20,000 nucleotides of DNA from an uncultured virus (IMG/VR IMGVR_UViG_3300042397_001885) (taxonomy: Duplodnaviria > Heunggongvirae > Uroviricota > Caudoviricetes). Below are positions 3,793 to 16,174 of this stretch, piece by piece. The translations under genes were made by a program, and so were the position numbers. The notes under the pieces are model-generated. The model saw only the letters and a program-made list of their open reading frames with translations. It was not told the DNA's origin and ran no database searches. The DNA lies in IMG/VR virus record IMGVR_UViG_3300042397_001885; one strand, written 5' to 3'. The stretch's first letter is position 1. Each line of letters begins with the position of its first letter.

Positions 3793-3816
3793 TTTTATCC
3801 TTTCAAAAATAAAAAA

Positions 3817-3897
3817 TTAGCTACCAGATAGTGTTGACAATAAGATTACTGTTATTGTAATCCAAAAGATGTATCTAGCATATTCTTTGTTACTCAT
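3817..3897 (-). CDS. Membrane micropeptide (26 aa)
   Basis: MSNKEYARYIFWITITVILLSTLSGS; AAGGA RBS upstream. Confidence 0.5.
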   Translation of the reverse strand: MSNKEYARYIFWITITVILLSTLSGS

Positions 3898-3979
3898 TTT
3901 CCTTAATCCTTGTTTTTTCAATAATTTCATCCCCCTGCCCCCTGCAAATTTTTACACTTTTTTGATTCATTGCATTCAT

Positions 3980-4008
3980 AGTATAAGAGTGTTTTTAATG
4001 CTTGTCAA
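3980..4008 (-). promoter_or_regulatory. Canonical sigma70/SigA promoter for the oxygenase operon
   Basis: TTGACA-17-TATACT on minus strand. Confidence 0.75.
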
Positions 4009-4101
4009 ATTGAGTTCCACCAAACATTGAACTATTAAATTATTTGTAACACAATTGTAACATATCATCTCACATATTGAGATATATATTTATATACCCG
4101 C

Positions 4102-4162
4102 AAAATCTGAATATTTTTATATTTGCAGCTAGATCCCATTTTGAAGAAAATCTGAATATTTT
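4102..4162 (+). repeat. 16-bp direct repeat AAAATCTGAATATTTT
   Basis: Copies at 4102-4117 and 4147-4162. Confidence 0.8.
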
Positions 4163-4234
4163 GTTAAAGTGTATGATGCGTAAAAATAGAAAAAGCTCAC
4201 TTTTTTATTAGTGAGCCCATCCTATTAGATAATA

Positions 4235-4420
4235 CTAGATGAATTCGAATTCTGCAACCTCTTCACAGTTCAAACAATTGTCTAAATCTTCACAATAACA
4301 ACCGTGAAACTCTCCAGCACAATCTTGACAATAGAGAACACTCTTTGACTTTGAATTTCTAGAATTGAAAGCCTTTCCAATTCGATGTCCTTGATGTTCT
4401 AAAATTATAGAATTAATCAT
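4235..4420 (-). CDS. Small Cys-rich hypothetical protein
   Basis: 61 aa; CQDC, CYC and CLNC motifs; tightly packed operon. Confidence 0.65.
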   Translation of the reverse strand: MINSIILEHQGHRIGKAFNSRNSKSKSVLYCQDCAGEFHGCYCEDLDNCLNCEEVAEFEFI

Positions 4421-4423
4421 TTC

Positions 4424-4612
4424 TTACCCCTCTAACATTTCACAGATAACAGCACCTATGGCAGATGCTAAGCCAATAATAAAAGTAACTAGCATAACTG
4501 TTGGAGTCATCCAACTAAAGCCAATCACTAAAAGTTGTAGTTGTAGTAGTAGTGCAGGTAGTGAGAACACTGCAATGAATACTAATGGTGCAATTAGATT
4601 GTAAACAAACAT
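4424..4612 (-). CDS. Small two-TM membrane protein
   Basis: 62 aa, hydrophobic; start abuts the stop of the upstream gene. Confidence 0.7.
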   Translation of the reverse strand: MFVYNLIAPLVFIAVFSLPALLLQLQLLVIGFSWMTPTVMLVTFIIGLASAIGAVICEMLEG

Positions 4613-4738
4613 TTAGAATACCTCGTATTCGTCAGGCTCACAGATGATACAGTAACCGTTAGTTTCCCAATCGGTTAGTTTGTCACCACACTCTACACAC
4701 TTTGTAGTAGTGATGTTCTCGTATGCTAGTTCAGTCAT
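4613..4738 (-). CDS. Small CxxC-CxxC Zn-finger protein (41 aa)
   Basis: MTELAYENITTTKCVECGDKLTDWETNGYCIICEPDEYEVF; ACGAAAGGA RBS; paralogue at 6663-6800. Confidence 0.8.
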   Translation of the reverse strand: MTELAYENITTTKCVECGDKLTDWETNGYCIICEPDEYEVF

Positions 4739-4772
4739 TTTGTGACTTCCTTTCGTTTGTTTCTATGTTCTA

Positions 4773-4794
4773 AACTTAGCAGATACCACTGACA
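4773..4794 (-). promoter_or_regulatory. RecA-NDp/PafBC-type promoter 1 (leftward)
   Basis: TGTCAG-tggtatctgc-TAAGTT; matches tTGTCRgtg-N8-TAnnnT exactly. Confidence 0.8.
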
Positions 4795-4840
4795 AAATCA
4801 AGCCAGAATCGCCTTTTTTAGGTTAACATTGGGTGAACAA

Positions 4841-4986
4841 TAATTCACAGGTTATCCACAGGATCCAGGCTGCGCCCCGTTTTCCACAGGTTATCCACAC
4901 CCTGTTAAGAAGGTGTTAATGAGTCCCCATTTTCTGTGTATAAGTATGGTAGTTATGTGTATAAGTTGTTAATAAGATGTGTATAA
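4841..4986. promoter_or_regulatory. DnaA-box cluster
   Basis: TTATCCACA at 4852 and 4891; TTTTCCACA at 4880; degenerate TAATTCACA at 4841; reverse TGTGTATAA at 4935, 4956, 4978. Confidence 0.75.
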
Positions 4987-4990
4987 CTAA

Positions 4991-5006
4991 TGTGATGAGG
5001 GTCACA
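4991..5006. promoter_or_regulatory. CRP/GlxR-type binding site
   Basis: Perfect TGTGA-N6-TCACA (TGTGAtgagggTCACA). Confidence 0.6.
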
Positions 5007-5044
5007 AAAATAATTCTAAAACACCCCCCAAAAAGGGGCAAAAC

Positions 5045-5066
5045 TGTCAGACCCCTCTGCTAAGAT
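5045..5066 (+). promoter_or_regulatory. RecA-NDp/PafBC-type promoter 2
   Basis: TGTCAG-acccctctgc-TAAGAT. Confidence 0.8.
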
Positions 5067-5082
5067 GAAATCATAAAGCAGT

Positions 5083-5137
5083 TGAGAGTGAGCCTAGCAA
5101 ATAATCCCGAAAGGGTGAGCCTAGCAAATAAATCTCA
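5083..5137 (+). ncRNA. Candidate structured 5' leader with 17-nt direct repeat
   Basis: GTGAGCCTAGCAAATAA at 5088 and 5115 around a CCC-GAAA-GGG hairpin, closed by TGAGA/TCTCA. Confidence 0.55.
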
Positions 5138-5159
5138 CACAAACGAAAGGTAAACCAAA

Positions 5160-5309
5160 ATGGCTTACACTAAAATAAAAAATGCAAGACTGCTAGTAGA
5201 TGCAGTCAATGGCTTAGAGTTAATACTCAAGCACGACCCAACCAATCAACGAATGATTGACTACTACAATCTACAAATAAAACTTTTGACTAGACGTGTC
5301 TACCGTTAA
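5160..5309 (+). CDS. Hypothetical protein (49 aa)
   Basis: MAYTKIKNARLLVDAV...LTRRVYR; ACGAAAGGT RBS. Confidence 0.7.
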   Translation: MAYTKIKNARLLVDAVNGLELILKHDPTNQRMIDYYNLQIKLLTRRVYR

Positions 5310-5312
5310 AAC

Positions 5313-5334
5313 TGTCAGACCTCTATGCTAAGAT
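5313..5334 (+). promoter_or_regulatory. RecA-NDp/PafBC-type promoter 3
   Basis: TGTCAG-acctctatgc-TAAGAT. Confidence 0.8.
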
Positions 5335-5366
5335 AAAACTAATAAACGAAAGAAAGGTAAGACAAA

Positions 5367-5576
5367 ATGACTTACACTGAAATAATGGAAGAGGTAGTTA
5401 CCCCAGCAGGTAACACTTTCTACAATACCATTCGCTACTATGACGAATGCGAGATTTGCCAATCTGCTATGGCTAAAGGTGAGATGCCTTTCATCTCTCA
5501 CGATAACTGCCTATACAAGGGTAAGCGTATCATTGGTCACTCACTAGGTCACTGTACCGCAGGGAGTTGCTACTAA
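5367..5576 (+). CDS. Small Cys/His-rich hypothetical protein
   Basis: 69 aa; CEIC and H...HC...C; GAAAGG RBS. Confidence 0.75.
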   Translation: MTYTEIMEEVVTPAGNTFYNTIRYYDECEICQSAMAKGEMPFISHDNCLYKGKRIIGHSLGHCTAGSCY

Positions 5577-5707
5577 TGAATAGATGCGAAAACTGTGATG
5601 AGTGGTCAGAGTGGAAATCCTGCCCTGCCTGTGATGAATCTATCTGTGGCTATTGTGTCTACTATGTAGAGCAAGACCTAACTAGTTGCGACAGATTAGG
5701 TCACTAA
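5576..5707 (+). CDS. Cys-rich Zn-binding micro-protein (43 aa)
   Basis: MNRCENCDEWSEWKSCPACDESICGYC...; TAATG overlap with the upstream gene. Confidence 0.7.
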   Translation: MNRCENCDEWSEWKSCPACDESICGYCVYYVEQDLTSCDRLGH

Positions 5708-5711
5708 AAAC

Positions 5712-5733
5712 TGTCAGACCTCTCTGATAGTAT
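5712..5733 (+). promoter_or_regulatory. RecA-NDp/PafBC-type promoter 4
   Basis: TGTCAG-acctctctga-TAGTAT. Confidence 0.8.
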
Positions 5734-5768
5734 CAACTTAACAAACAAACAAACGAAAGGTGGTCACA

Positions 5769-5993
5769 ATGACTACACTAAACACCAAAGACTTTCTAGA
5801 GTCTTACAAGGCTTTGCACAATGCAAAGTATTCAACACTAAATGCAAATGAGCATCTTGTTCTTGCAACAATTCTAACCGTTTCTATTGAGTGGTCAAAG
5901 TCACTTGATGAGGTTCAGAAATTACTAGACAAGAAAACTCAAGAACAAAATCTTGAACTACAATTCTTCCAAAATGCAAAGGCAGGAAAATAA
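5769..5993 (+). CDS. Hypothetical protein
   Basis: ATG 5769 after GAAAGGTGG RBS; 74 aa. Confidence 0.75.
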   Translation: MTTLNTKDFLESYKALHNAKYSTLNANEHLVLATILTVSIEWSKSLDEVQKLLDKKTQEQNLELQFFQNAKAGK

Positions 5994-5994
5994 A

Positions 5995-6177
5995 ATGATG
6001 ACACGCAAAGACTACATAGCAACTGCAAAGATTTTTAATTCTTATGCAGAAGCAGGACAAGACAACCTTTTGATTTCTTCACTTGTAAAAAGTATGGTAG
6101 AAGATTTTGCAGACTTATTCGCAAATGATAATCCAAACTTTGATGAGCAAAGATTTCTAGATGCGGTAGGTGTGTAA
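5995..6177 (+). CDS. Hypothetical phage protein (MTRKDY...F..DNPNFD..RF type)
   Basis: Start reassigned to 5995, directly after the upstream stop; 60 aa. Confidence 0.8.
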   Translation: MMTRKDYIATAKIFNSYAEAGQDNLLISSLVKSMVEDFADLFANDNPNFDEQRFLDAVGV

Positions 6178-6329
6178 TGAGATTTGCACATAGCAAAATT
6201 GACGGTACTTTCGTAATTGGAATTAGTTTTTCAAATTACTACAATTCAAAACTAGGTTACAAAAATACTTCCCTGATTTTTGACTTAGGAAAACATTCAG
6301 TAGCATTTATTTTTAGAGGTGAACACTAA
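6177..6329 (+). CDS. Hypothetical protein (50 aa)
   Basis: MRFAHSKIDGTFVIGISF...; TAATG coupling at both ends. Confidence 0.65.
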   Translation: MRFAHSKIDGTFVIGISFSNYYNSKLGYKNTSLIFDLGKHSVAFIFRGEH

Positions 6330-6403
6330 TGAATAGTTTTTATTCTTGGGTATTTATTTTATCTATTGCAACTCTATTTTTTTTAGCAGGACAGGAAAAA
6401 TAA
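6329..6403 (+). CDS. Membrane micropeptide (24 aa)
   Basis: MNSFYSWVFILSIATLFFLAGQEK; GAGG RBS and TAATG coupling. Confidence 0.5.
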   Translation: MNSFYSWVFILSIATLFFLAGQEK

Positions 6404-6404
6404 A

Positions 6405-6470
6405 TTGGAAGCAATTTTAATTATTGCAATTAGTTTAATTCTAGTTTTGGTTTGGAGTTTTACAGATTAG
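6405..6470 (+). CDS. Membrane micropeptide (21 aa, TTG start)
   Basis: MEAILIIAISLILVLVWSFTD; AGGA upstream. Confidence 0.4.
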   Translation: MEAILIIAISLILVLVWSFTD

Positions 6471-6475
6471 AAATC

Positions 6476-6505
6476 TCCTGGGGTGTTTTTCATTCCAGGA
6501 TTTTT
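6476..6505 (+). terminator. Intrinsic terminator
   Basis: TCCTGGGGTG-TTTTT-CATTCCAGGA followed by TTTTT. Confidence 0.6.
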
Positions 6506-6516
6506 CCTGCGCCCCG

Positions 6517-6559
6517 TTTTCCACAGCTTGTCCACAGGTCTTTAAGAAGGTGTGGATAA
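6517..6559. promoter_or_regulatory. DnaA boxes
   Basis: TTTTCCACA 6517, TTGTCCACA 6528, reverse TGTGGATAA 6551. Confidence 0.7.
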
Positions 6560-6615
6560 GTCCCCAAGTTTTGTTATAAGTTTGTTACATAAGACACGCC
6601 CTTAAATACCAAAAT

Positions 6616-6637
6616 TGTCAGACCCCTATGATAGGTT
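6616..6637 (+). promoter_or_regulatory. RecA-NDp/PafBC-type promoter 5
   Basis: TGTCAG-acccctatga-TAGGTT. Confidence 0.8.
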
Positions 6638-6662
6638 ATAACTATAACGAAAGAGGAAAAAG

Positions 6663-6800
6663 ATGACTGAATTAGCATTTGAAAACGTAACCAAACTAAA
6701 GTGTGAATCTTGCAATGATAAACTAACCCCTTGGGAAACTAGACTTTGCATTCTTTGCGATAATGAATCTGAACAAGAATTTGAATTTGATGATGAGTAA
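6663..6800 (+). CDS. Small CxxC-CxxC Zn-finger protein (45 aa), paralogue of 4613-4738
   Basis: MTELAFENVTKLKCESCNDKLTPWETRLCILCDNESEQEFEFDDE; GAGG RBS. Confidence 0.8.
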   Translation: MTELAFENVTKLKCESCNDKLTPWETRLCILCDNESEQEFEFDDE

Positions 6801-6803
6801 AAT

Positions 6804-6825
6804 TGTCAGACCTCTATGCTAAGAT
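6804..6825 (+). promoter_or_regulatory. RecA-NDp/PafBC-type promoter 6
   Basis: TGTCAG-acctctatgc-TAAGAT. Confidence 0.8.
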
Positions 6826-6855
6826 AATCCTATACCTACAAACGAAAGGGACACT

Positions 6856-7107
6856 ATGTTCACTTTGACTAATCCAATGAAAGTGATGAATGACCGTTAT
6901 GTCGTTACATCATTACCTTGCCCTGATTGTGGCACAACCAAAACAGTTTCTATCTCATCACAACAATTATTTGCATATAATCAAGGTGCTTATTGTCAAG
7001 ATGTATTGAAAGACTATGATGCAGGTATTCGTGAACGTTTCATTTCTGGAATGTGTGACGATTGTTTTTGCACTATGACTAATTTTGCTAACTGGAATGA
7101 GGAATAA
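6856..7107 (+). CDS. Zn-ribbon hypothetical protein
   Basis: CPDC...RERFISGMCDDC; 83 aa. Confidence 0.8.
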   Translation: MFTLTNPMKVMNDRYVVTSLPCPDCGTTKTVSISSQQLFAYNQGAYCQDVLKDYDAGIRERFISGMCDDCFCTMTNFANWNEE

Positions 7108-7109
7108 AA

Positions 7110-7415
7110 ATGGGACTAAACTTTGCAACTGAATTATCAACAACGGATACTATGCCAATTGAGCAACAAATTAATATCCACTTGCAGTATAACTTCTACC
7201 CTCCAGTACCATCGTCAATGGTACAACCTTGCATAGATGCTATCAATGCTTATTGGAATGAAGATATCTATGCTGAAATAGAAATGCCACAAGGAGTTTC
7301 TTATCGTGGTAGTAACTATGCACCTGCTCACGCTATCGTTGAGCAACATCGTTTGGATCCTTGGTTGGATACTGATGACTACTATGAAGAATATGAATAT
7401 CAGGATATGGAGTAA
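7110..7415 (+). CDS. Hypothetical phage protein
   Basis: 101 aa; HLQYNFYPPVP motif; GAGG RBS. Confidence 0.8.
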   Translation: MGLNFATELSTTDTMPIEQQINIHLQYNFYPPVPSSMVQPCIDAINAYWNEDIYAEIEMPQGVSYRGSNYAPAHAIVEQHRLDPWLDTDDYYEEYEYQDME

Positions 7416-7419
7416 ATAA

Positions 7420-7530
7420 TTGTTTGAAATAATTTCTATAATTATTCTTGCACCATTCATAATAGTTCCGTTGTTAGGATTCATAATTGGAATGATGACT
7501 TCTAATGATGATGGTGATCCTAAATGGTAA
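7420..7530 (+). CDS. Membrane micropeptide (36 aa, TTG start)
   Basis: MFEIISIIILAPFIIVPLLGFIIGMMTSNDDGDPKW; GGAG RBS. Confidence 0.55.
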   Translation: MFEIISIIILAPFIIVPLLGFIIGMMTSNDDGDPKW

Positions 7531-7619
7531 TAAGGCTTGACAAGCCCAGCGAAAGCTGCGCCCTGTGGATAACCTTGTTATCTAATTGTTATTAAGATGA
7601 CTTGAAAAAACCACCAAAT

Positions 7620-7641
7620 TGTCAGACCTTTATGGTAAGTT
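7620..7641 (+). promoter_or_regulatory. RecA-NDp/PafBC-type promoter 7 (leaderless transcript)
   Basis: TGTCAG-acctttatgg-TAAGTT; ATG 6 nt downstream. Confidence 0.8.
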
Positions 7642-7647
7642 TATCTT

Positions 7648-7788
7648 ATGAAACAAAGTGAGAACTACAAACTACCTGCAAGCCCTGAACAGTTGAGGGC
7701 TAGACTTGAGTTGCGTAGAAGCAATGCAGCCGTACCTCACAGAAATAAAAAGGCTTACACACGAAAGACTAAGCACAAGGAATGGTAA
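7648..7788 (+). CDS. Small basic protein with ArfA-like C-terminal motif (46 aa)
   Basis: MKQSENYKLPASPEQLRARLELRRSNAAVPHRNKKAYTRKTKHKEW. Confidence 0.7.
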   Translation: MKQSENYKLPASPEQLRARLELRRSNAAVPHRNKKAYTRKTKHKEW

Positions 7789-7791
7789 AAA

Positions 7792-7813
7792 TGTCAGACC
7801 CTTGTGATAAGAT
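7792..7813 (+). promoter_or_regulatory. RecA-NDp/PafBC-type promoter 8
   Basis: TGTCAG-acccttgtga-TAAGAT. Confidence 0.8.
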
Positions 7814-7841
7814 AAATCTACCTACAAAGAAAGAGAACCAA

Positions 7842-7964
7842 ATGTCAGATACAGAATTAATCAAAGATTTGTTTGAGGGTGTCATTGATGATAATGCCCT
7901 TGCAAAATTATCTAAAGAAGAATTAGATGCAATTAACAAAATGCTAACGGAAGCAGGTTACTAA
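7842..7964 (+). CDS. Small acidic helical protein (40 aa)
   Basis: Start reassigned to ATG 7842, downstream of promoter 8. Confidence 0.7.
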   Translation: MSDTELIKDLFEGVIDDNALAKLSKEELDAINKMLTEAGY

Positions 7965-7965
7965 A

Positions 7966-8304
7966 ATGGGTGCAAGAATTAATTTCGTATTTGATGACGG
8001 AACAGAAGCATTGACCGTTTTGTATTCACACTATGGGGAATACACTTGGCAAGATGATTTAGCAGGTGCATTAGACCACGCTAAACCACGTCACGGAGAC
8101 CATTCATACTTTACCCGTATGGTTATCTCACACTTGATTCAAGATGCTATCCTAGCCCCAACAGGTTTTGGTATCTATGCAATTAAGCGTGATGAGATTT
8201 CAGAGATGTGGGATAAAGTAGTTGTAATAGATTTAGTTAATAATCTAGTTACTGATTTAGACAATAGCAATTCAATTCCATTTTATTCGGAGGTGTTAGT
8301 ATAA
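7966..8304 (+). CDS. Hypothetical phage protein
   Basis: 112 aa; MGARINF...LYSHYG...DHSYFTRM. Confidence 0.8.
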   Translation: MGARINFVFDDGTEALTVLYSHYGEYTWQDDLAGALDHAKPRHGDHSYFTRMVISHLIQDAILAPTGFGIYAIKRDEISEMWDKVVVIDLVNNLVTDLDNSNSIPFYSEVLV

Positions 8305-8453
8305 TGGGACAAATGAAAACAATTGAAATGATTCTAATGGAAAATCATCCCAATGGAATTTATAATGAAGATGATGTATGGGAAGCCATTGCAGAAGCAA
8401 CTGGTATGGACTATTCAGAAATTGCAGATGGAGATTTGGCGGAATGGCTATGA
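8304..8453 (+). CDS. Small acidic protein (49 aa)
   Basis: MGQMKTIEMILMENHP...LAEWL; GGAGG RBS; TAATG coupling. Confidence 0.7.
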   Translation: MGQMKTIEMILMENHPNGIYNEDDVWEAIAEATGMDYSEIADGDLAEWL

Positions 8454-8587
8454 AATTATTTAATAGAAAACCAAAAGAAAGAAATGTAATCTATGCTGAT
8501 ACATTTAGTTACTTAGATAAGTTGATGAGTGAAATGGCATCTACTGAAATTTACATTGAATACCTGCGAGAAAGGGAAAAGGCTTGA
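8450..8587 (+). CDS. Hypothetical protein (45 aa)
   Basis: ATGA overlap with the upstream stop; MKLFNRKPKERN... Confidence 0.65.
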   Translation: MKLFNRKPKERNVIYADTFSYLDKLMSEMASTEIYIEYLREREKA

Positions 8588-8693
8588 AAAAGCTGCGCCC
8601 CATTTTGATCCACTTGTCAAGTATTTACGAAGTGATTAAGGACACACCGAAAAGTGTCCACATAGTGAGATTATAGCGTGTCGGATTTGGAAA

Positions 8694-8715
8694 TGTCAGT
8701 CATTTCTGGTATAGT
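8694..8715 (+). promoter_or_regulatory. RecA-NDp/PafBC-type promoter 9
   Basis: TGTCAG-tcatttctgg-TATAGT. Confidence 0.75.
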
Positions 8716-8761
8716 AGGTACTACAACAAGGGAACAATCCCACAAAAGAAAAGAGAAGCAA

Positions 8762-8920
8762 ATGGCAAAAATCACAGCCCCAACTGTTGGCTCACAGTTC
8801 ACCACAGCAAAAAGCAAGGTTACTGGCGAAGTTCAGGAAGTAGTTAAGAACGCAAACGGTTCATACCGAGTTCGTCTTGACATTGACGGTCAGCCACGCT
8901 GGACTACTTTAACTAAGTAG
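8762..8920 (+). CDS. Small beta-rich (SH3/KOW-like) protein (52 aa)
   Basis: MAKITAPTVGSQFTTAKSKVTGEVQEVVKNANGSYRVRLD...; start reassigned downstream of the promoter. Confidence 0.75.
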   Translation: MAKITAPTVGSQFTTAKSKVTGEVQEVVKNANGSYRVRLDIDGQPRWTTLTK

Positions 8921-8946
8921 TTTTAGTTAGGGGGTCTGGCTAAAAC

Positions 8947-8968
8947 TGTCAGACCCCTATGCTAAGAT
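8947..8968 (+). promoter_or_regulatory. RecA-NDp/PafBC-type promoter 10
   Basis: TGTCAG-acccctatgc-TAAGAT. Confidence 0.8.
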
Positions 8969-9000
8969 TACTTTATACCTACAAAAGAATGGAGTCCCCA

Positions 9001-9477
9001 ATGGGCTTAGATATGTACCTTCGTGCAAGTGAATATGTGTACCGTCACAACTTTAATCGTCAGACGGATGAGGACACAATTAACCCAATCTTTAATGAGA
9101 TTGTTAAGAATCTTGAATTAGAAAATGTTATTGATAGTTCTGGCTTTGCTGGAATTACTGTTGATGTACCAATGGGCTATTGGCGTAAATCAAATATGAT
9201 TCATCATTGGTTTGTAAATAACTTAGCAGATGGTGTTGATGAATGTCAGCCAATCATTGTTCGTAGAGAAGATTTAGAACAGTTGAAAGAAACCTGTATT
9301 GAAGTAATTGCTAATCCAGAATCAGCAGAAGAATTATTGCCAACAGGTAGTGGATTCTTCTTTGGTTCAACAGAGTATGATAAGTATTACTTTGGAGATT
9401 TGAACGATACTGTTGGTATCATCACTAGATGCCTTGATAGTAAGTTCGACTATTTTGAGTACCAAGCCTCTTGGTAA
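9001..9477 (+). CDS. Conserved phage protein of unknown function (MGLDMYL...YWRKxNxIHxWF type)
   Basis: Start at ATG 9001 after GGAG; ends YQASW. Confidence 0.85.
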   Translation: MGLDMYLRASEYVYRHNFNRQTDEDTINPIFNEIVKNLELENVIDSSGFAGITVDVPMGYWRKSNMIHHWFVNNLADGVDECQPIIVRREDLEQLKETCIEVIANPESAEELLPTGSGFFFGSTEYDKYYFGDLNDTVGIITRCLDSKFDYFEYQASW

Positions 9478-9559
9478 GGTAACTCAATAATTAAAAGGTA
9501 GCCAATACCGCCAGGTTGTTGGTGATTGAATGAAAAGATATAAATCCTGGCACAAGCTT

Positions 9560-9636
9560 GGTCTGGTGGCTCAGTTGGTTAGAGCACCGCCCTGTCACGG
9601 CGGAGGTCGTGGGTTCAAGTCCCATCCAGATCGCCA
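9560..9636 (+). tRNA. tRNA-Asp(GTC), CCA encoded
   Basis: Acceptor GGTCTGG/CCAGATC; D arm GCTC/GAGC; anticodon arm CCGCC-CTGTCAC-GGCGG; TTCAAGT loop; G-CCA end. Confidence 0.97.
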
Positions 9637-9711
9637 AGCTGCGCCCTGTTATCAAATCGTTATATAAAGCTATTAAGAGACACACAGATATCTGCCAGTT
9701 TAAGTTGAAAT

Positions 9712-9733
9712 TGTCAGACCCTTGTGCTAAGAT
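9712..9733 (+). promoter_or_regulatory. RecA-NDp/PafBC-type promoter 11
   Basis: TGTCAG-acccttgtgc-TAAGAT. Confidence 0.8.
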
Positions 9734-9766
9734 AAGACTATTAAACAAACAAACAAAGGAAACAAA

Positions 9767-10756
9767 ATGGCAGATGCAGTTGAAGTTATTAACGGTGTGG
9801 GCTCTATGTATTCATTTCGTGAACCTGCTTGGCATGGTCTAGGAACTGTTGTTACAGAAGAACACACTACAAGTGAAGTTATGGACATAGCACACTTATC
9901 AAATTGGAATGTACGTCTTGAAGATGTTCAACTACCTGAAGATTACACATCAAGCAAATCTAACTTTCTTGTTGTTCGTGACCACCCAGAAGACGGACAC
10001 CCAGATGTTCTAGCAGTTGTTGGTGAACGATACCAAACTTTACAGAATGAAGAACTATTTGCTTTTGCAGATAATCTTCTTGACGGTGCTCGTTGGGAAA
10101 CTGCTGGTTCTCTAAAGAATGGTCGTGTTGTATTTGGTTCTCTTGCTCTTGAGCGTGAAACCGTACTTGACCCAAGTGGAGTTGCAGATGTTGTGAAGTC
10201 TTACTTACTTGTAAACACATCACATGACGGTTCTCTTGCTGTTCGTGCATCTGTTACACCTGTTCGTGTTGTGTGTGCTAATACTCTTGACATGGCTCTT
10301 CGTGGTGTTAAGCAGTCTTTCAAGATGCGACACACATCAACACTTGAGGGTCGTATTCTGGTTGCTCGTGAAGCATTGGGTCTTGCTAATACTTACATGG
10401 ATGCTTTTGACAAAATGGCTCAAGAACTTATTGAAAAGGAAATCACAAAAGATACTTTTAATAAGATTGTTGAAAAGGCTTATCCAATGCCAAGCAAAGA
10501 TGCTAAGGGTGCTATGACTAAGTGGGAAACCAAAATTGAATTGTTAGATGAGATTTTTGCATCAGATACTAATTCAATGATTAACAATACCGCTTGGGGT
10601 GCTTTCAACACATTGACTGAACGCCTTGATTGGTATCGCTCTGCCCGTAATGGCAACAACGAGGGAATCCTTGCAAGTGCATCAGGCTTTGACCCAGTTA
10701 TCACAGCAGAAAAAAACAAACTACTTTCCATTGTGAAAGAGGTTGCCTTCGCCTAG
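9767..10756 (+). CDS. DUF932 domain protein (phage/plasmid-like, TIGR03299-type)
   Basis: REPAWHGLG, WETAGSLKNG, YLLVNTSHDGS, TPVRVVCANTL and TAWGAFN motifs. Confidence 0.9.
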   Translation: MADAVEVINGVGSMYSFREPAWHGLGTVVTEEHTTSEVMDIAHLSNWNVRLEDVQLPEDYTSSKSNFLVVRDHPEDGHPDVLAVVGERYQTLQNEELFAFADNLLDGARWETAGSLKNGRVVFGSLALERETVLDPSGVADVVKSYLLVNTSHDGSLAVRASVTPVRVVCANTLDMALRGVKQSFKMRHTSTLEGRILVAREALGLANTYMDAFDKMAQELIEKEITKDTFNKIVEKAYPMPSKDAKGAMTKWETKIELLDEIFASDTNSMINNTAWGAFNTLTERLDWYRSARNGNNEGILASASGFDPVITAEKNKLLSIVKEVAFA

Positions 10757-10814
10757 TAGGATAAAATCTGAACGGAAGAGACTCTCATCACACAGAGTAT
10801 AAAAATAGGTGAAA

Positions 10815-10844
10815 TAGACCTGAGCATGTCTAAATAAACTGCTC
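10815..10844 (+). ncRNA. Mini H-type pseudoknot motif copy A
   Basis: TAGAC-CTGAGCAT-GTCTA-AATAAAC-TGCTC. Confidence 0.65.
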
Positions 10845-10915
10845 CCCATTCTGGGCGCAGCCTGGATCCCAGCTCCTCGTTTACGATTAAGGTGGGGTAG
10901 AAATACCCCCAAAAT

Positions 10916-10937
10916 TGTCAGACCTCTGTGCTATGAT
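10916..10937 (+). promoter_or_regulatory. RecA-NDp/PafBC-type promoter 12
   Basis: TGTCAG-acctctgtgc-TATGAT. Confidence 0.8.
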
Positions 10938-10968
10938 GTAATCATAACCTACTAAGAAATGAGACACA

Positions 10969-11742
10969 ATGCCAAACTGGGTATTTAATAGTTTAGTTGT
11001 ATCTGGTGAACAATCAGAATTAGATAAGATGGTTGAACAATTAAATCAACCTTTTGAAAAGCATTTTCCTAATGCAGAATACAATAAAGAATTAGAAAAG
11101 TGGGAACACTTTCCAGATACCCAAATTTATTCTAATCCTGTCTTTGCTTTTTGGAACATTGTAAAACCAACAGACCTTAAGTCATACTATGGTGAAGAAG
11201 TGTTTAAGAAAACTAATCTTGCCCCTGAAGAATTTATGACAGAGTTTGTTCGCTCTATGAAAGAAGACCAAGACTGGTATCACTGGAACTGTCGTAACTG
11301 GGGAACTAAGTGGGACGTAGCAGTAGATGATAAGTCTGAATGGTCAGAAACTCGTATCACTCTTAATGATGATGGCTCTGTTATGTATCATTTCAATACT
11401 GCTTGGTCTCCTGTTGGCGAGGTTTTAATTAAACTATCAGAGATGTATCCAACTCTTGAATTTGACTATGAGTATGAGGAAGAGCAAGGCTGGGGTGGCA
11501 GTTGCACATTCTTGGGTGGAAAAGAGATTGCCTCTAATGAGTATGACACTCCAATGTCTCACGCTGACTACAAGGCACTAGAAAGAGAGTGCCAATGTGA
11601 ATACAATGACGTTGAGTATGCTTTTGAAGATTGCCCAATGGATACCACTAAATTTAAGTGGGATTCAGAACTAGAGGAATGGGTAGAATTGTCAGACCTC
11701 TCTGATACACTAGTTTCAACAACCAACCTACAAGGAGAATAA
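10969..11742 (+). CDS. YubB/DUF1281-like ferredoxin-fold domain protein
   Basis: MPNWxxN start; WYHWNCRNWGTKWD and FNTAWSP motifs. Confidence 0.8.
   Translation: MPNWVFNSLVVSGEQSELDKMVEQLNQPFEKHFPNAEYNKELEKWEHFPDTQIYSNPVFAFWNIVKPTDLKSYYGEEVFKKTNLAPEEFMTEFVRSMKEDQDWYHWNCRNWGTKWDVAVDDKSEWSETRITLNDDGSVMYHFNTAWSPVGEVLIKLSEMYPTLEFDYEYEEEQGWGGSCTFLGGKEIASNEYDTPMSHADYKALERECQCEYNDVEYAFEDCPMDTTKFKWDSELEEWVELSDLSDTLVSTTNLQGE
11690..11711 (+). promoter_or_regulatory. RecA-NDp/PafBC-type promoter 13 (inside the 3' end of the CDS)
   Basis: TGTCAG-acctctctga-TACACT. Confidence 0.75.
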
Positions 11743-11743
11743 A

Positions 11744-12238
11744 ATGGAATTCACAAGAAGCGAACCAACATTTGCTAAAGAACTAATAGAAGCAGGGGAC
11801 ATCAAGCCTATCTATGACCCAAAGGCAACCATTGTTGTCCGAAAGGGTTACTACTATGGCACACCATCAGATTCAAAGTTTGACTTAGAAAATGCAGACG
11901 ACATTTCCAGAACTTACTGGAGGCTAGATGCACTACAAGAAACTAACAACCGTAACTCAAGGGCACAAGACAAGTTAAAAGATTATCTTGTTGAGAACTT
12001 TGATGAGATTGGCGAAGAACACGCAACTGAAATTGCAAACATCTTTGGTATTGACTTGTCTAAAGAAGTTGAAGTTGAATTCAATGTAACAATTAAGGCA
12101 ACAGTTTCTATTCCTGTCAATGAAGATGCTTCTGATTTAAGTGTCTATGACTTTGACATCACAATCGAATCAAATGAATCTAAGTATGAGATTCAAGAGT
12201 TTGATGCAGACATTGATTCAATAGATGAAAGATACTAG
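11744..12238 (+). CDS. Acidic hypothetical phage protein
   Basis: 164 aa; AAGGAG RBS. Confidence 0.85.
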   Translation: MEFTRSEPTFAKELIEAGDIKPIYDPKATIVVRKGYYYGTPSDSKFDLENADDISRTYWRLDALQETNNRNSRAQDKLKDYLVENFDEIGEEHATEIANIFGIDLSKEVEVEFNVTIKATVSIPVNEDASDLSVYDFDITIESNESKYEIQEFDADIDSIDERY

Positions 12239-12261
12239 GTTTATCTAGTAGGTAGGTAAAA

Positions 12262-12287
12262 GTGCTGAGCATCACGTTAAACTGCTC
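12262..12287 (+). ncRNA. Mini H-type pseudoknot motif copy B
   Basis: GTG-CTGAGCAT-CAC-GTTAAAC-TGCTC. Confidence 0.6.
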
Positions 12288-12373
12288 CTTCAAGCTGCGC
12301 CCCCATTTAATAAGTCTATTAGTCTTAGAACATGATTAAGAAGACTTAAAAACACCCCCAAGCCGTGCAAAAA

Positions 12374-12395
12374 TGTCAGACCTCTGTGGTAGGAT
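12374..12395 (+). promoter_or_regulatory. RecA-NDp/PafBC-type promoter 14
   Basis: TGTCAG-acctctgtgg-TAGGAT. Confidence 0.8.
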
Positions 12396-12425
12396 ACAAA
12401 GTATCAACCTACAAAAGGACAAAAA

Positions 12426-12596
12426 ATGATTGACACAACAGACCCACGACTAAGTGAGTTAGCAGACCACTTTGTTGAATTACATAATGTTGGTGGTATT
12501 GAATTAGAACAATGGGATACCGCCTATCAGTTTGTAAAACATTTTTATAACACAGAAGAAATGGTTCAAATAGTTATTAGGGAGAAAAAGGTATGA
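12426..12596 (+). CDS. Hypothetical protein (56 aa)
   Basis: MIDTTDPRLSELADHF...; AAGGA RBS; ATGA overlap with the next gene. Confidence 0.7.
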   Translation: MIDTTDPRLSELADHFVELHNVGGIELEQWDTAYQFVKHFYNTEEMVQIVIREKKV

Positions 12597-12850
12597 CTTA
12601 TCTAGTAGCAACAACAGAGATTATTTATTCAGAAGAAGCATTAATTAAAATGATGTTAGCAACAGGTGAGTATGGTATTCATGGTTATCCTATTAGTCAT
12701 GAGGCTATGATTGAATTTGTTAAAGATCAAGAATGGCAGATAGAACATAATTTATTCCTTGACAAATTTGATGTACCTGCACAGATTAGCATTAAAGATG
12801 AGGACGGTACAGATTTATTCTTTGCCAAGAACAGACTGGAGATAGTGTAA
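12593..12850 (+). CDS. Hypothetical protein
   Basis: 85 aa; coupled operon. Confidence 0.75.
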   Translation: MTYLVATTEIIYSEEALIKMMLATGEYGIHGYPISHEAMIEFVKDQEWQIEHNLFLDKFDVPAQISIKDEDGTDLFFAKNRLEIV

Positions 12851-13095
12851 TGAAACTAAGAGGAATCTTTGAGGGAACTTTTGAATCAGTATGGAGTATG
12901 GACGTACCTGATCAACTATGGAATTTGTATTTACTACACAACCCTGACTTTGACGAAAATGACCGTGACGACATTCAGGAGATGTGGGAGCATTTTAAGA
13001 GTGAGGGTTGTTATGATGAGATTGACGACACAGTAGACACAGATGTAGTAATGACAGGTATAGAAACCTATGGAGTAGAAGTGGAGATTAACTAA
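12850..13095 (+). CDS. Highly acidic hypothetical protein
   Basis: 81 aa; TAATG coupling. Confidence 0.75.
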   Translation: MKLRGIFEGTFESVWSMDVPDQLWNLYLLHNPDFDENDRDDIQEMWEHFKSEGCYDEIDDTVDTDVVMTGIETYGVEVEIN

Positions 13096-13283
13096 TGGAT
13101 TTGTATAATTATAGTGTAGAGTTTGTATTAGAACGTATGGTAATTATTACAAGTGTTCAACTAAATGAGCCAGACTTATCTGATGAGTTTATTATTGAGG
13201 AAGCAAAGAATACCTTAATGGACTATTATAAGATTGACCCCGAAATTATGTATCTACAAGATGTAATCGTACACGAGGTATAG
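13095..13283 (+). CDS. Acidic hypothetical protein
   Basis: 62 aa; TAATG coupling. Confidence 0.75.
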   Translation: MDLYNYSVEFVLERMVIITSVQLNEPDLSDEFIIEEAKNTLMDYYKIDPEIMYLQDVIVHEV

Positions 13284-13285
13284 TA

Positions 13286-13396
13286 ATGACTAATGAATTA
13301 ACTCTTGATGAAGTATTAGATGTTATTAATCAAATGAAAGATGAGGGTAATTATCATAATCCTACCCTTGACGAACTGGAAGATAGGTTACAGTAA
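13286..13396 (+). CDS. Small acidic protein (36 aa)
   Basis: MTNELTLDEVLDVINQMKDEG...; GAGG RBS. Confidence 0.6.
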   Translation: MTNELTLDEVLDVINQMKDEGNYHNPTLDELEDRLQ

Positions 13397-13524
13397 TGTT
13401 AATGGATAAAGTAAAATGCTGTATGTGTGAGGCTGTATCGTTTGTAGACTTATGGGCTGATGATTGTCCAGAATGTAATAAAACTGGTTATCTTATGGAC
13501 ATAGAACAGGAAGTAGAAGTATGA
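13396..13524 (+). CDS. Zn-ribbon micro-protein (42 aa)
   Basis: KCCMC...DCPEC; coupled at both ends. Confidence 0.65.
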   Translation: MLMDKVKCCMCEAVSFVDLWADDCPECNKTGYLMDIEQEVEV

Positions 13525-13757
13525 GTTACGAATATCATTGGGTAGTTGTTTATGATGAGGATTGGGGAGCTTTCATGGTTGATGTAGAAACAACAATGAT
13601 AAATATGGCAGACCACCCTGGTCTTATTTATAATAAAACTAGTGGACGTTGGGAAGATGATCTAAAAGAGGGTTCAGAACTAGAAACTGAATACCAGAGG
13701 CTAGAAGAAGTCTTGGCATATCAACTAACAAGACTTGACATTCCAAAGAAAGTTTAG
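13521..13757 (+). CDS. Hypothetical protein
   Basis: 78 aa; ATGA overlap. Confidence 0.75.
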   Translation: MSYEYHWVVVYDEDWGAFMVDVETTMINMADHPGLIYNKTSGRWEDDLKEGSELETEYQRLEEVLAYQLTRLDIPKKV

Positions 13758-13763
13758 TAGGAT
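13735..13763 (+). promoter_or_regulatory. Canonical SigA promoter, leaderless
   Basis: TTGACA-17-TAGGAT; ATG 6 nt downstream. Confidence 0.7.
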
Positions 13764-13769
13764 ACGACT

Positions 13770-14204
13770 ATGAAAACATTAGAAGGCGTAACGGTAGAAT
13801 ACACACAGACAATCCCTACAAGTAAGCAGATGCCAGAGTTTTATGTGTGGCAGGAGGGTGCAGAGTCTTATGCAACTATCACATACTTGGACCGTGTGGT
13901 AGAGATTGAACGTAATGGTGAGATGAGTCTATCACTACCAAACTTAGTTAATGGTGAACTATCTGATGAAGGTGTCACTATTGTGAGATACTCTGACGAC
14001 TTAGAGGCTGCAGGTATCAACGATGACATTCAGTTGATGCAGTTTATTAAAACTATTAGCAATAGTGGATTTGAAGTTTATCGTATGAATCCTTGGTGGG
14101 AAGTGTTTGCACACAATGAAGATATGGGTGAAGTGTATGACACATTCTACGAAGCAATTGATGCTGGTATTGACCACATTATAGACGACCAATGGTGGAA
14201 CTAA
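13770..14204 (+). CDS. Acidic hypothetical protein
   Basis: 144 aa; NPWWE motif. Confidence 0.8.
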   Translation: MKTLEGVTVEYTQTIPTSKQMPEFYVWQEGAESYATITYLDRVVEIERNGEMSLSLPNLVNGELSDEGVTIVRYSDDLEAAGINDDIQLMQFIKTISNSGFEVYRMNPWWEVFAHNEDMGEVYDTFYEAIDAGIDHIIDDQWWN

Positions 14205-14359
14205 TGGATACAGCAATTAATAGATTTATTAAACATACCATAGCCAACCTTGAGGGGGCTTTGGAAAAAGATGAGCCGCAACTAACGTGGGCTGTTCTAA
14301 AGAATCTATCAAGTGTGATAGAATCCTATGTGGAGGCGATTGAACTTGAGCGACTATGA
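14204..14359 (+). CDS. Hypothetical protein (51 aa)
   Basis: MDTAINRFIKHTIANLEGALEK...; TAATG coupling. Confidence 0.6.
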   Translation: MDTAINRFIKHTIANLEGALEKDEPQLTWAVLKNLSSVIESYVEAIELERL

Positions 14360-14549
14360 AATATATGACTATGTAATAGTTAACTTTGTAGAGCCTGGAG
14401 ATTTAATTAATTTTGCAGGTGGAGACTTTAGAGTGTTAGAAATAGAACCAACAGAAGATGGTTGGATCCTAGAGGTATTAGATCGTATGGAAGATCAAAT
14501 AGATTTATTTGTTCCAGACGGTGAAGTAATAGCCTTATTAGAAGAATAG
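14328..14549 (+). CDS. Small SH3-like beta-barrel protein (start uncertain)
   Basis: VEPGDLINFAGGDFRVLEIE pattern. Confidence 0.65.
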   Translation: MWRRLNLSDYEIYDYVIVNFVEPGDLINFAGGDFRVLEIEPTEDGWILEVLDRMEDQIDLFVPDGEVIALLEE

Positions 14550-14551
14550 AT

Positions 14552-14580
14552 TTGACAACCCTGTCAAAAAATGGTAAGAT
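14552..14580 (+). promoter_or_regulatory. Canonical SigA promoter
   Basis: TTGACA-17-TAAGAT with extended TG. Confidence 0.75.
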
Positions 14581-14610
14581 AAATACAAGGTAACTCTTAA
14601 GGAGAGAACA

Positions 14611-14772
14611 ATGACAAGAGAGCAAATGCGTACTCTGAAGAAGCAACGTTTCACATCACTTGAAAAGTGGGGAGACACAGAACGTGTAGTAATTCGTGAC
14701 GGTCTAGGACATTTTATCCACAACGTCAATCTAACATCACTACGCCGTAACAAGGTAGTAAAGTCCCGTTAA
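14611..14772 (+). CDS. Small basic protein (53 aa)
   Basis: MTREQMRTLKKQRF...IRDGLGHF...; AAGGAG RBS; own promoter and terminator. Confidence 0.75.
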   Translation: MTREQMRTLKKQRFTSLEKWGDTERVVIRDGLGHFIHNVNLTSLRRNKVVKSR

Positions 14773-14785
14773 GGCTGGCTGGAAG

Positions 14786-14813
14786 GGGGCAGGGAAGGTC
14801 CTTGCCCCTTTTT
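14786..14813 (+). terminator. Intrinsic terminator
   Basis: GGGGCAGGGA-AGG-TCCTTGCCCC followed by TTTTT. Confidence 0.75.
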
Positions 14814-14834
14814 GTCAGACCTCAATGATAGAAT
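14813..14834 (+). promoter_or_regulatory. RecA-NDp/PafBC-type promoter 15
   Basis: TGTCAG-acctcaatga-TAGAAT. Confidence 0.8.
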
Positions 14835-14843
14835 GGGAACACT

Positions 14844-15059
14844 ATGGGAAAAACACCAAACGAGAAAATAGCAGATAAGTTGATTGCCCTATTTTCAGAC
14901 AGTAGAATCGGAATCGTAGATTGGCAACACTACATTCCATTTTACATCACACAGCAAAACTATCACGTTATTGCAAATGCTAAAAATCTGGCAGACGGAA
15001 TAAATGAACAACTTGCTGACAATGAAATCGGGCTAAGCAAAGAACAGTTAGGAAAATAA
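14844..15059 (+). CDS. Hypothetical protein
   Basis: 71 aa, directly after promoter 15. Confidence 0.75.
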   Translation: MGKTPNEKIADKLIALFSDSRIGIVDWQHYIPFYITQQNYHVIANAKNLADGINEQLADNEIGLSKEQLGK

Positions 15060-15355
15060 TGTTAGACACAAGAGAAAAAGCAGAAATCATTTTTGAGTTT
15101 ATCAATGGGTATAGAAGTGATGAAGCCTTTGAAGATTTCTTTTCATACAATGATTTAGGCGTACCAATGTCAGTAATGATTGTAAATGAATTAGTTATTC
15201 TAACAGACAAGGGTCTACAAGTAATTGATGAGACCTGGTTGGAACTTTGTTCGGTTCTAAATAATGCTGACCCAAACTATGACTACCAAGACCTTGATGA
15301 ACTAATTGAAATGGCTGTTCCTTTTGAAGATCAAGCAGACTTAGAAGATGAGTAA
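15059..15355 (+). CDS. Acidic hypothetical phage protein
   Basis: 98 aa; F..YNDLG.P and IDETW motifs. Confidence 0.8.
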   Translation: MLDTREKAEIIFEFINGYRSDEAFEDFFSYNDLGVPMSVMIVNELVILTDKGLQVIDETWLELCSVLNNADPNYDYQDLDELIEMAVPFEDQADLEDE

Positions 15356-15455
15356 ATGGGATAGCAGAGAACCATACACAAATGTTGGAACTGGAATAAT
15401 TGGTGGATTTATGTCTATCTTATTATTCTTTATTTTGATATCAGCAATTTTTTAA
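15348..15455 (+). CDS. Membrane micropeptide (35 aa)
   Basis: MSKWDSREPYTNVGTGIIGGFMSILLFFILISAIF. Confidence 0.55.
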   Translation: MSKWDSREPYTNVGTGIIGGFMSILLFFILISAIF

Positions 15456-15461
15456 ATTGTT

Positions 15462-15538
15462 GGGGTGGTAGCTCAGTTGGTTAGAGCCCTGAACTCATAA
15501 TTCAGTAGTCGTCAGTTCGAGCCTGACCCACCCCACCA
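15462..15538 (+). tRNA. tRNA with CAT anticodon (elongator Met or Ile2), CCA encoded
   Basis: GGGGTGG/CCACCCC acceptor (paired 1-72, so not initiator); CTGAA-CTCATAA-TTCAG anticodon arm; TTCGAGC loop; A-CCA end. Confidence 0.95.
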
Positions 15539-15646
15539 AGTGGGCGCACACAAATTTAATTTTGTCAAATAAGATTAAGAACGACCTTTTAAATCGCCCA
15601 TTTTTCAATATTTTTAAAATCAAGGAAGAGAGAGTATAATAGTATT

Positions 15647-16174
15647 ATGACTATAGTAATTGGACTCATAGATAATGGTATTGTCTATATGGGATCAGAT
15701 AGAGGTATGTCTGATGAATATTCTATATCTTCTCCTATTACCCCGAAAATAAAAAAGAATGGACAATTCTTAATTGGTTATGCTTCTTCAAGGGGATCTG
15801 GACAAGTAGCTCATTATATTGATTTTCCTAATGTAGTTAAAAAGGATGTAGATAAATATATGAGAACAGATTTTATTCTTACCCTGAAAAAAGCTATAGA
15901 TCCATATGGTATTGATATATCAGATGATGACAAAGCTGCTGCAGATTTTTTGGTGGGAATTCATGGAAGATTATTTAATATATCTACTAATGACTGGCAA
16001 GTAAATGAATATGATAAATATACAGCTATTGGATCTGGTAATAGTTTTGCAATAGGATCATTAGATACTTCATATACCTGGAAAGATCCTATAAAGAAAA
16101 TAAAGACAGCTTTAGATAGTGCTATAAAGAATTCTCCTCAATGTGATTATCCAATAGATATTTTACATTCTTAA
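15647..16174 (+). CDS. HslV/proteasome beta-type Ntn-hydrolase (Thr protease)
   Basis: N-terminal M-T-IVIG, GSD and AIGSG motifs; TATAAT 6 nt upstream of ATG (leaderless). Confidence 0.85.
   Translation: MTIVIGLIDNGIVYMGSDRGMSDEYSISSPITPKIKKNGQFLIGYASSRGSGQVAHYIDFPNVVKKDVDKYMRTDFILTLKKAIDPYGIDISDDDKAAADFLVGIHGRLFNISTNDWQVNEYDKYTAIGSGNSFAIGSLDTSYTWKDPIKKIKTALDSAIKNSPQCDYPIDILHS

Follow-up and report, generated by a model that had tools for sequence, protein, structure and literature searches.

How is a dense block of small genes in an uncultured tailed virus switched on, and by which protein are its promoters read? The question is raised by a 20,000-nucleotide stretch (hereafter the window) of the IMG/VR virus record IMGVR_UViG_3300042397_001885 (Caudoviricetes), in which the element TGTCAG-N10-TAnnnT has 15 exact matches, 14 on the plus strand and one on the minus strand. 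By comparison, 200 dinucleotide-preserving shuffles of the window gave a mean of 0.35 and a maximum of 3 matches. A preliminary description of the sequence had listed the 15 copies and likened them to the RecA-NDp/PafBC-type DNA-damage promoters of actinobacteria; all of them were found again by the exact pattern count. Their presence, clustering and gene-adjacent placement mark the 15 sites as promoters of a dedicated class. As regards their reader, the sequence evidence moderately favours the host SigA polymerase adapted by a host PafBC-type WYL activator.

The aligned sites give the consensus aAAAy-TGTCAG-ACCyCTnTGn-TAaGAT, with a run of A just 5' of the hexamer. The distance from the hexamer to TAnnnT is exactly 10 nucleotides (nt) in 15/15 sites, and the spacer ends in all 15 in TGn, an extended −10 element whose TG lies at −15/−14, one base ahead of the −10 hexamer. 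An open reading frame (ORF) starts downstream of every site, 6-93 nt after the end of the −10; the gap is 20-34 nt at 11 of the 15 sites, 46 and 93 nt at two, and 6 and 9 nt at two more, from which leaderless or nearly leaderless mRNAs would result. The invariant spacer and the position directly upstream of genes had both been described correctly. No −35 element was found at the 15 sites when spacings of 16-18 nt were scored against the background of TAnnnT in the window: the best match averaged 2.87 of 6 positions at the sites, compared with 2.60 for all TAnnnT of the window, and a score of 5/6 was attained by just one site.

Window positions 5556-20000 are identical to the end of the 72.9-kb virus record G001, which is 68% complete according to CheckV, and the window could thus be joined to the rest of this record in a composite of 78,497 bases. 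All 15 TGTCRG-N10-TAnnnT sites of the composite fall within positions 4773-14834 of the window, which make up 12.8% of it, and the absence of copies from the flanks that had been noted before extends to this larger sequence. In G001 itself, 12 sites are found in the last 9 kb and none in the remaining ~64 kb.

The rest of the genome uses other promoters. TGnTATAAT occurs 12 times in the composite; 11 copies lie outside the block on the coding strand, and the block itself has none (examples are window position 16945 on the minus strand and L015:7036-7096); the TGTCAG class and the TGnTATAAT class are mutually exclusive in this genome. Several perfect TTGACA-N17-TAnAAT promoters are also present outside the block, for example before the gene at G001 47097. 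Two promoters within the block have TAGGAT or TAAGAT as their −10, as at the TGTCAG sites, and a perfect TTGACA at a spacing of 17 nt. The −10 is thus of the SigA (housekeeping) type, and TGTCAG replaces the −35 at most block promoters.

This architecture is that of a known promoter type. In the available part of PMC8635444, the PafBC promoter is given as tGTCgg(N10)tA(N3)T with its 5' part at −23 to −28 and without a −35; PafB recognises the GTC triplet, PafBC is positioned between DNA and SigA's domain 4, and PafBC is described as present in almost every actinobacterial species. Excerpts of PMC5656591 give the RecA-NDp form tTGTCRgtg-8nt-TAnnnT, and those of PMC2375139 the UV-inducible recA promoter of Streptomyces rimosus as TTGTCAGTGGC-N6-TAGggT; a primer upstream of Mycobacterium tuberculosis recA also contains TTGTCAGTGGC (PMC2211405). 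The phage sites share with these promoters TGTC(A/G)G at −28 to −23, the 10-nt spacer, TAnnnT, the lack of a −35 and the preference W-S-S (A/T, G/C, G/C) after the hexamer. The proposed likeness therefore holds for the core sequence, the spacing and the missing −35. The phage promoters differ in that 15 of them are packed into 10 kb before small genes without known function instead of repair genes, and in having TGn always, an upstream A-run and a nearly fixed TGTCAG, with no TGTCGG.

Bacterial counterparts of the phage form were found in a metagenome scan for TGTCAG-N10-TAnnnT 90-120 nt before codons for GKGxxM, which we take to be a short RecA motif. The scan returned at least 120 rows. Among the matches listed, a RecA ORF (by match to RecA representatives) follows the motif in 110 of 120, and 107 align to the RecA of locus L389, 81 of them with at least 75% identity and at a GC content of 0.44 to 0.73. 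These 81 loci appear to be recA genes of the actinobacterial type. Their 53 distinct promoter strings carry A or T at position 7 in 85%, G or C at position 8 in 95% and G or C at position 9 in 92%, and the triplets after TGTCAG include TGG (15 strings), TGC (9), ACC (7) and AGG (6). In the phage set of 40 distinct strings, A, C and C occupy positions 7-9 in about 85% each, despite genomes of 36-43% GC. Since ACC occurs among the bacterial recA strings and the W-S-S preference is common to both sets, the phage ACC form is, judging by these strings, a natural variant of bacterial recA promoters and not a phage invention. By a rough estimate, some recA-linked matches could arise by chance when all bacteria are considered; what counts as signal is therefore the surplus of actinobacterial-type loci, together with the free positions, which are not random, and the conserved islands described below.

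The recA loci L389 and L410, on two contigs of GC 0.44 whose promoters are identical, read TGTCAGttagggcagtTATCTT, and L395 (GC 0.48) reads TGTCAGtgcagttaccTACGGT; in all three, 32-33 nt separate the end of the −10 from the recA ATG. When aligned, they show four conserved islands in diverged DNA, namely a GAAC-N4-GTTC box, AGATGTCAGT, the −10 and the ribosome-binding site. The box, conserved as GAACACTTGTTCGA, lies ~60 nt upstream of the TGTCAG element (L389 2185-2200, minus strand, and the aligned part of L395). GAAC-N4-GTTC is presumably the LexA box of the L389/L395 group, and since the conserved box fits it, both damage pathways seem to be kept at recA of low-GC Actinomycetota. A two-promoter layout of this kind is described for mycobacterial recA in the excerpts of PMC5656591. 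The window contains no LexA-type box of the form GAAC-N4-GTTC. We place L389 in the actinobacteria, judging from the bit scores of its RecA (604 to one group of PDB RecA chains, presumably the mycobacterial one, vs 491 for the next group), from its neighbourhood of a TRAM-domain gene, pgsA, cinA, an HTH_3 gene, recA and recX, and from the NCBI name of an identical protein, which is listed as RecA of an Actinomycetota metagenome-assembled genome (MAG).

Some loci were set aside. The recA loci L368, L437, L441 and L450 (group A; GC 0.41-0.44) were not counted, as their taxon is unclear and their TGTCAG is one half of a CTGACA-N6-TGTCAG palindrome. This 6-bp inverted repeat overlaps a TATATT −10 and may be a different, repressor-type site that uses the same TGTCAG word. 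The RecA proteins of L403 and L453 looked Bacteroidetes-like by eye, and the two were taken as chance matches.

The element is also conserved among related viruses. An IMG/VR scan with the longer word TGTCAGACC-N4-TG-N-TAnnnT returned at least 174 stretches; the matches listed lie on at least ~120 contigs (hand count), at least 44 of which have two or more, and single matches may be due to chance. In five long relatives, 4-17 sites each are clustered on one strand, and a reversed control pattern gave 0-1. Three of these phages (G002, G005 and G006; GC 38-43%) have in common only 46-53 of the 111 ORFs of the phage studied here, with a mean identity of 45-48%, and the element is thus conserved in the same block of distant relatives with ~45% protein identity. 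A relaxed scan of the blocks of four phages, with up to two mismatches, gave 43 sites with the hexamers TGTCAG (33), TGTCTG (6, all in G006), AGTCAG, TATCAG, TCTCTG and TGTCGT (1 each); GTC was retained in 41 of the 43. A hexamer-free scan anchored on ACCCCT-N-TG-N-TAAGAT yielded 123 rows, 79 of them unrelated background and 44 with GTC, and the hexamers of the latter were TGTCAG (39), TGTCTG (3) and TGTCAT (2). Related phages contain TGTCAGTGGCAGG; among the matches listed, the most frequent bacterial recA promoter string begins with these 13 bases.

Contigs of relatives, 90-99% alike, cover much of the block in a metatranscriptome-library run; such contigs show no starts, strand or level, and DNA carry-over is possible. 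In the same run, the contigs of related phages pass from one cassette to another exactly at promoters or next to them (for example 5076 to 6874, 9641/9645 to 12370 and 12242 to 12371), and these junctions suggest an exchange of cassettes among relatives at the promoter element.

The phage has a GC content of 36% (31-41% along the window). Despite this, its host is very probably an actinobacterium, as a WhiB protein is encoded and the nearest cultured kin infect Streptomyces and Rhodococcus; the actinobacterial host presumed in the preliminary description is therefore supported. The phage WhiB is 42-51% identical to WhiB of Rhodococcus and Streptomyces phages of ~130 kb, WhiB is encoded in four of the five long relatives, and the DUF932 protein of the phage shows 53% identity to that of Streptomyces phage Tomas and its kin. 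The remainder of G001, on the opposite strand, encodes a portal, a protease, a capsid protein, a 3135-amino-acid protein with a minor-tail domain and an M23 peptidase. It also has genes for DnaB, primase, a PolIII-alpha-type polymerase, MazG, RecA, RuvC, SSB, FtsZ and WhiB. FtsZ, RecA, PolIII alpha, an enzyme of the GMP-reductase/IMPDH family and thioredoxin are host-like genes in G001; those in G006 are a class Ib ribonucleotide reductase with NrdI, Cpn10, glutaredoxin, carbamoyltransferases and sugar-nucleotide enzymes. Pfam scans of 65 G001 ORFs and 143 G006 ORFs found no integrase or repressor family, and the phage is thus probably lytic.

Other routes to the host and the relatives were less informative. 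Megablast of the promoter block and tblastn of a 676-amino-acid ORF preceding the portal gene gave no match among GenBank phages; this ORF, assumed at first to be the large terminase, has no Pfam match. The phage RecA was discarded as a host indicator: the best 120 of 5153 hits were all at least 77% identical, on short contigs and apparently of phage type, a search of representatives gave mostly divergent RecA forms, and scores against the PDB hardly differed from one bacterial RecA to another. Contigs L193 and L194, whose WhiB is 51-59% identical to that of the phage, belong to MAGs labelled Arenimonas and Woesearchaeota (the latter contig being 100.9 kb long), probably as misbinned phage contigs. 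A literature search on Nanopelagicales with WYL, proteasome or PafA gave nothing useful.

A reader encoded by the phage was not found. The WYL domain (PF13280) was matched by none of five phage records (three with a completeness of at least 90%) at E values up to 0.1, and control genomes did match. In the complete relative G006, a Pfam scan of 143 out of 163 ORFs found WhiB as the sole transcription factor; the other ORFs are 5 that span a locus border and 15 long ones, most of which have structural or replication roles. Families of sigma, HTH, MotA and AsiA proteins were absent from Pfam scans of 30 window ORFs, 65 G001 ORFs and 143 G006 ORFs. Two readers had been suggested in the preliminary description. 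The WYL/HTH mimic of the phage itself is not supported by these scans; the host PafBC is retained, backed by the motif match, the actinobacterial host and the element at recA of low-GC Actinomycetota.

With host PafBC as the reader, the block promoters would be hybrids in which a SigA-type TAnnnT −10 and the extended −10 TGn are combined with TGTCAG at −28 to −23 as a '−26 element', with no −35. A host PafBC-type activator, switched on by single-stranded DNA (ssDNA), would adapt the SigA polymerase to these promoters, and DNA ends, nuclease products and replication could be the sources of ssDNA during infection. The added TGn would probably give basal, activator-independent activity, so that expression of the block could begin immediately and rise further when ssDNA is formed. 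The activation of PafBC by ssDNA and its binding only to polymerase already on such a promoter are described in PMC11804915. The genes of the block are small and presumably early or host-takeover genes of a lytic low-GC phage of aquatic actinobacteria. More tentatively, and with considerable doubt on our side, the ssDNA alarm of the host may be used as the ignition and timer of the phage, with a basal start, an ssDNA surge and 10-20 strong sites per genome copy that would draw PafBC and SigA polymerase off the repair regulon. Earliest expression, a possible trigger by the injected DNA and a titration of PafBC at the cost of host repair genes had likewise been proposed in the preliminary description. 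That PafBC rather than another factor is involved, that the host has pafBC, when the block is expressed and that ssDNA made by infection is the trigger are all points that we infer.

Several observations weigh against host PafBC as the reader. The host and the presence of pafBC in low-GC actinobacteria are both presumed; a scan of genome contigs with the phage WhiB returned only the Arenimonas- and Woesearchaeota-binned contigs and no actinobacterial genome. The recA scan preselected the motif, and the matches listed give no share of recA genes that carry it. The closest single match among those listed, L342, of which the first 18 of 22 bases equal the site at 5045, comes from a bacterium of unsettled phylum. 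The variant TGTCGG was found in none of the 44 GTC-bearing sites, though the M. smegmatis consensus is tGTCgg, and the T at hexamer position 5 in G006 falls outside the published R. The requirement of PafBC for ssDNA (PMC11804915) fits poorly with genes that need to fire first. TGn, present at 15/15 phage sites, was seen in 2 of 99 bacterial recA promoters among the matches listed, a near-absence that had been overlooked in the preliminary description; being universal in the phage and rare in bacteria, it implies that the phage promoters may work without any activator, and they may be partly activator-independent, stronger versions of the bacterial promoter. Finally, about two-thirds of the phage ORFs match no family, so that the absence of a reader from the phage is weak negative evidence and an unrecognised one may be encoded.

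The cultured high-GC relatives add to these points, since Tomas, Grayson, BillNye and NiceHouse have 4, 0, 0 and 1 scattered matches and no cluster in any of the four. The terminal-repeat block of Tomas and kin (Stanwilliamsviridae) is homologous to the present one and resembles it in its DUF932 gene (53% identity) and in being made up of numerous short cassettes that have a hairpin and a promoter each, but the promoters there are TTGTGC-17-TAGACT and are preceded by a hairpin, GACCGGCCCGGTC and AAAAGATC. GTC-N12-TAnnnT is not enriched in Tomas (5 found vs 5.84 expected). Nearly every intergenic gap in positions 1-14568 of the Tomas record (L018) contains, in this order, a GC hairpin, GACCGGCCCGGTC, AAAAGATC, TTGTGC/TTGCAT, ~17 nt and TAGACT; the arrangement is a stereotyped control element, and its palindrome looks like the binding site of a dimer.

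An activator encoded by the phage or carried in the virion could bridge TGTCAG to SigA in the manner of T4 MotA/AsiA; the likeness to recA P1 would then be convergence or deliberate competition with PafBC, and the block would be a middle class that an earlier phage product turns on. The element is placed like the T4 MotA box as that is described in the available part of PMC8635444, about two-thirds of the ORFs match no family, the hexamer is more uniform than in bacteria (TGTCAG in 33/43, with ACC next in 31/40 distinct strings), and transcription could begin at the perfect TGnTATAAT and TTGACA promoters found elsewhere. Yet the scanned records and ORFs contain no match to WYL, sigma, HTH, MotA or AsiA, and the agreement with recA promoters reaches positions 7-9 and the exact spacing, which a private factor would not need; we therefore regard a phage activator as unlikely. 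Another host factor that reads P1-type motifs, either a ClgR-type HTH protein or a second WYL activator, is very improbable in our view. ClgR recognition of the P1 motif is cited in the excerpts of PMC5656591, recA of L389 has an HTH_3 gene immediately upstream, and further WYL activators exist in mycobacteria; chromatin immunoprecipitation sequencing and cryo-electron microscopy, however, put PafBC on the element, with PafB reading GTC (PMC8635444, in part).

The sites could also be self-sufficient extended −10 promoters (TGnTAnnnT) used by plain SigA polymerase, in which TGTCAG would be the operator of a shut-off repressor or a boundary word for cassette recombination. Extended −10 promoters can work without a −35, TGn is present in 15/15 sites, and contigs of relatives switch cassettes at or near promoters, for example from 5076 to 6874 and from 9641 to 12370. 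Nonetheless, the fixed 10-nt spacing and single orientation suit a polymerase-linked element better than a free operator, and no repressor-like gene was seen in the 65 G001 and 143 G006 ORFs scanned. A layout of the stoperator type does not apply either: the stoperators of cluster A mycobacteriophages are many asymmetric sites spread genome-wide and go with a phage repressor, and the present sites all fall in a single 10-kb block and never occur apart from a −10, with no repressor or integrase family found in the G001 and G006 ORFs scanned. Moreover, the same element without TGn precedes recA in at least 81 actinobacterial-type loci and is known to be activating there, according to the available parts of PMC8635444 and PMC5656591. 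Promoters that depend on the extended −10 alone thus seem improbable to us, and the SigA polymerase adapted by host PafBC remains the reading that we prefer.

The individual promoters and their surroundings are listed in the table.

Table. Promoters and other features of the block (positions in the window; gaps are counted from the end of the −10)
Feature	Position	Strand	Remarks
Leftward promoter TGTCAGTGGTATCTGCTAAGTT, reads ttTGTCAGTGGt	4773..4794	−	recA-like TGG subclass; 41-amino-acid ORF 4738-4613 starts 34 nt past −10
Promoter TGTCAGACCCCTCTGCTAAGAT, first of rightward series	5045..5066	+	
Promoter	5313..5334	+	ORF 5367-5576, start 32 nt past −10
Promoter	5712..5733	+	ORF 5760-5993, start 26 nt past −10
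Promoter	6616..6637	+	ORF 6663-6800; terminator-like hairpin 6476-6500 upstream
Promoter	6804..6825	+	ORF 6856-7107
Promoter, leaderless-type layout	7620..7641	+	ATG 7648, 6 nt past −10
Promoter	7792..7813	+	ORF from 7842
Promoter TGTCAGTCATTTCTGGTATAGT, non-ACC subclass	8694..8715	+	
Promoter	8947..8968	+	ORF to 9477 (172 amino acids)
Promoter of DUF932 gene 9767-10756	9712..9733	+	
Promoter of DUF1281_C-like gene 10969-11742	10916..10937	+	
Promoter within 3' end of preceding gene	11690..11711	+	ORF 11744-12238
Promoter heading ~10 small ORFs (12426-14549)	12374..12395	+	
Promoter	14813..14834	+	ATG 14844, 9 nt past −10; terminator-like hairpin 14785-14803 upstream
Canonical promoter TTGACA-17-TAGGAT in block	13735..13763	+	−35 instead of −26 element; ATG 13770, 6 nt after
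Canonical promoter TTGACA-17-(TGg)TAAGAT in block	14552..14580	+	
Block of ~35 small rightward ORFs	5160..16174	+	mostly without family match
tRNA-Asp	9560-9636	+	inside block
tRNA-Met	15462-15538	+	inside block
tRNA genes Arg, Asn	18760-18833, 18897-18970	−	outside block
HslV/proteasome-like peptidase, 175 amino acids	15647-16174	+	block end; Pfam proteasome-subunit E 3e-4 (weak); PHROG HslV E 6e-16

The named family matches in the block are DUF932, the DUF1281_C-like protein and the HslV/proteasome-like peptidase. The position of the latter at the block end is worth mentioning, as actinobacterial pafBC sits in the proteasome locus. To the left of the divergent promoter pair 4794/5045, genes for an Mtd-N-domain tail-fibre-like protein, a DUF6065 protein and a 2OG-Fe(II) oxygenase are found (window 3-2336 and 2455-3792, both on the minus strand).

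Sigma adaptation of the PafBC type is known so far only as a bacterial DNA-damage response, and our literature search met no description of PafBC-type promoters in a phage; a 2025 study on pafBC and mycobacteriophage resistance, known to us by citation, may bear on this. If the proposed reading is true, this would be the first virus that uses sigma adaptation by a host WYL activator, a DNA-damage or stress sensor would be a dependency factor of a lytic phage, and the promoter grammar of uncultured low-GC actinobacteria would be readable from their phages. The phage family is very common in freshwater, with thousands of RecA relatives and, by hand count, at least ~120 motif-bearing viral contigs, and the hypothesis is testable with existing M. 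smegmatis tools.

Among known phage systems, the terminal redundancy of Bacillus phage SPO1 and the pre-early region of T5, which have many strong early promoters, are alike in that densely packed units of a promoter, a small gene and a terminator precede the genes for replication and structure. These takeover modules use plain host sigma promoters with a −35, unlike the block described here. The middle promoters of T4, with a MotA box at −30 and a −10, are similar in that an activator box replaces the −35 next to a host −10, as far as they are described in the available part of PMC8635444. They differ in relying on sigma appropriation by MotA/AsiA, to which the phage scans found no match, distant analogues being possible. 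Since the phage box equals a host promoter element, no phage factor would in principle be needed, unlike in T4.

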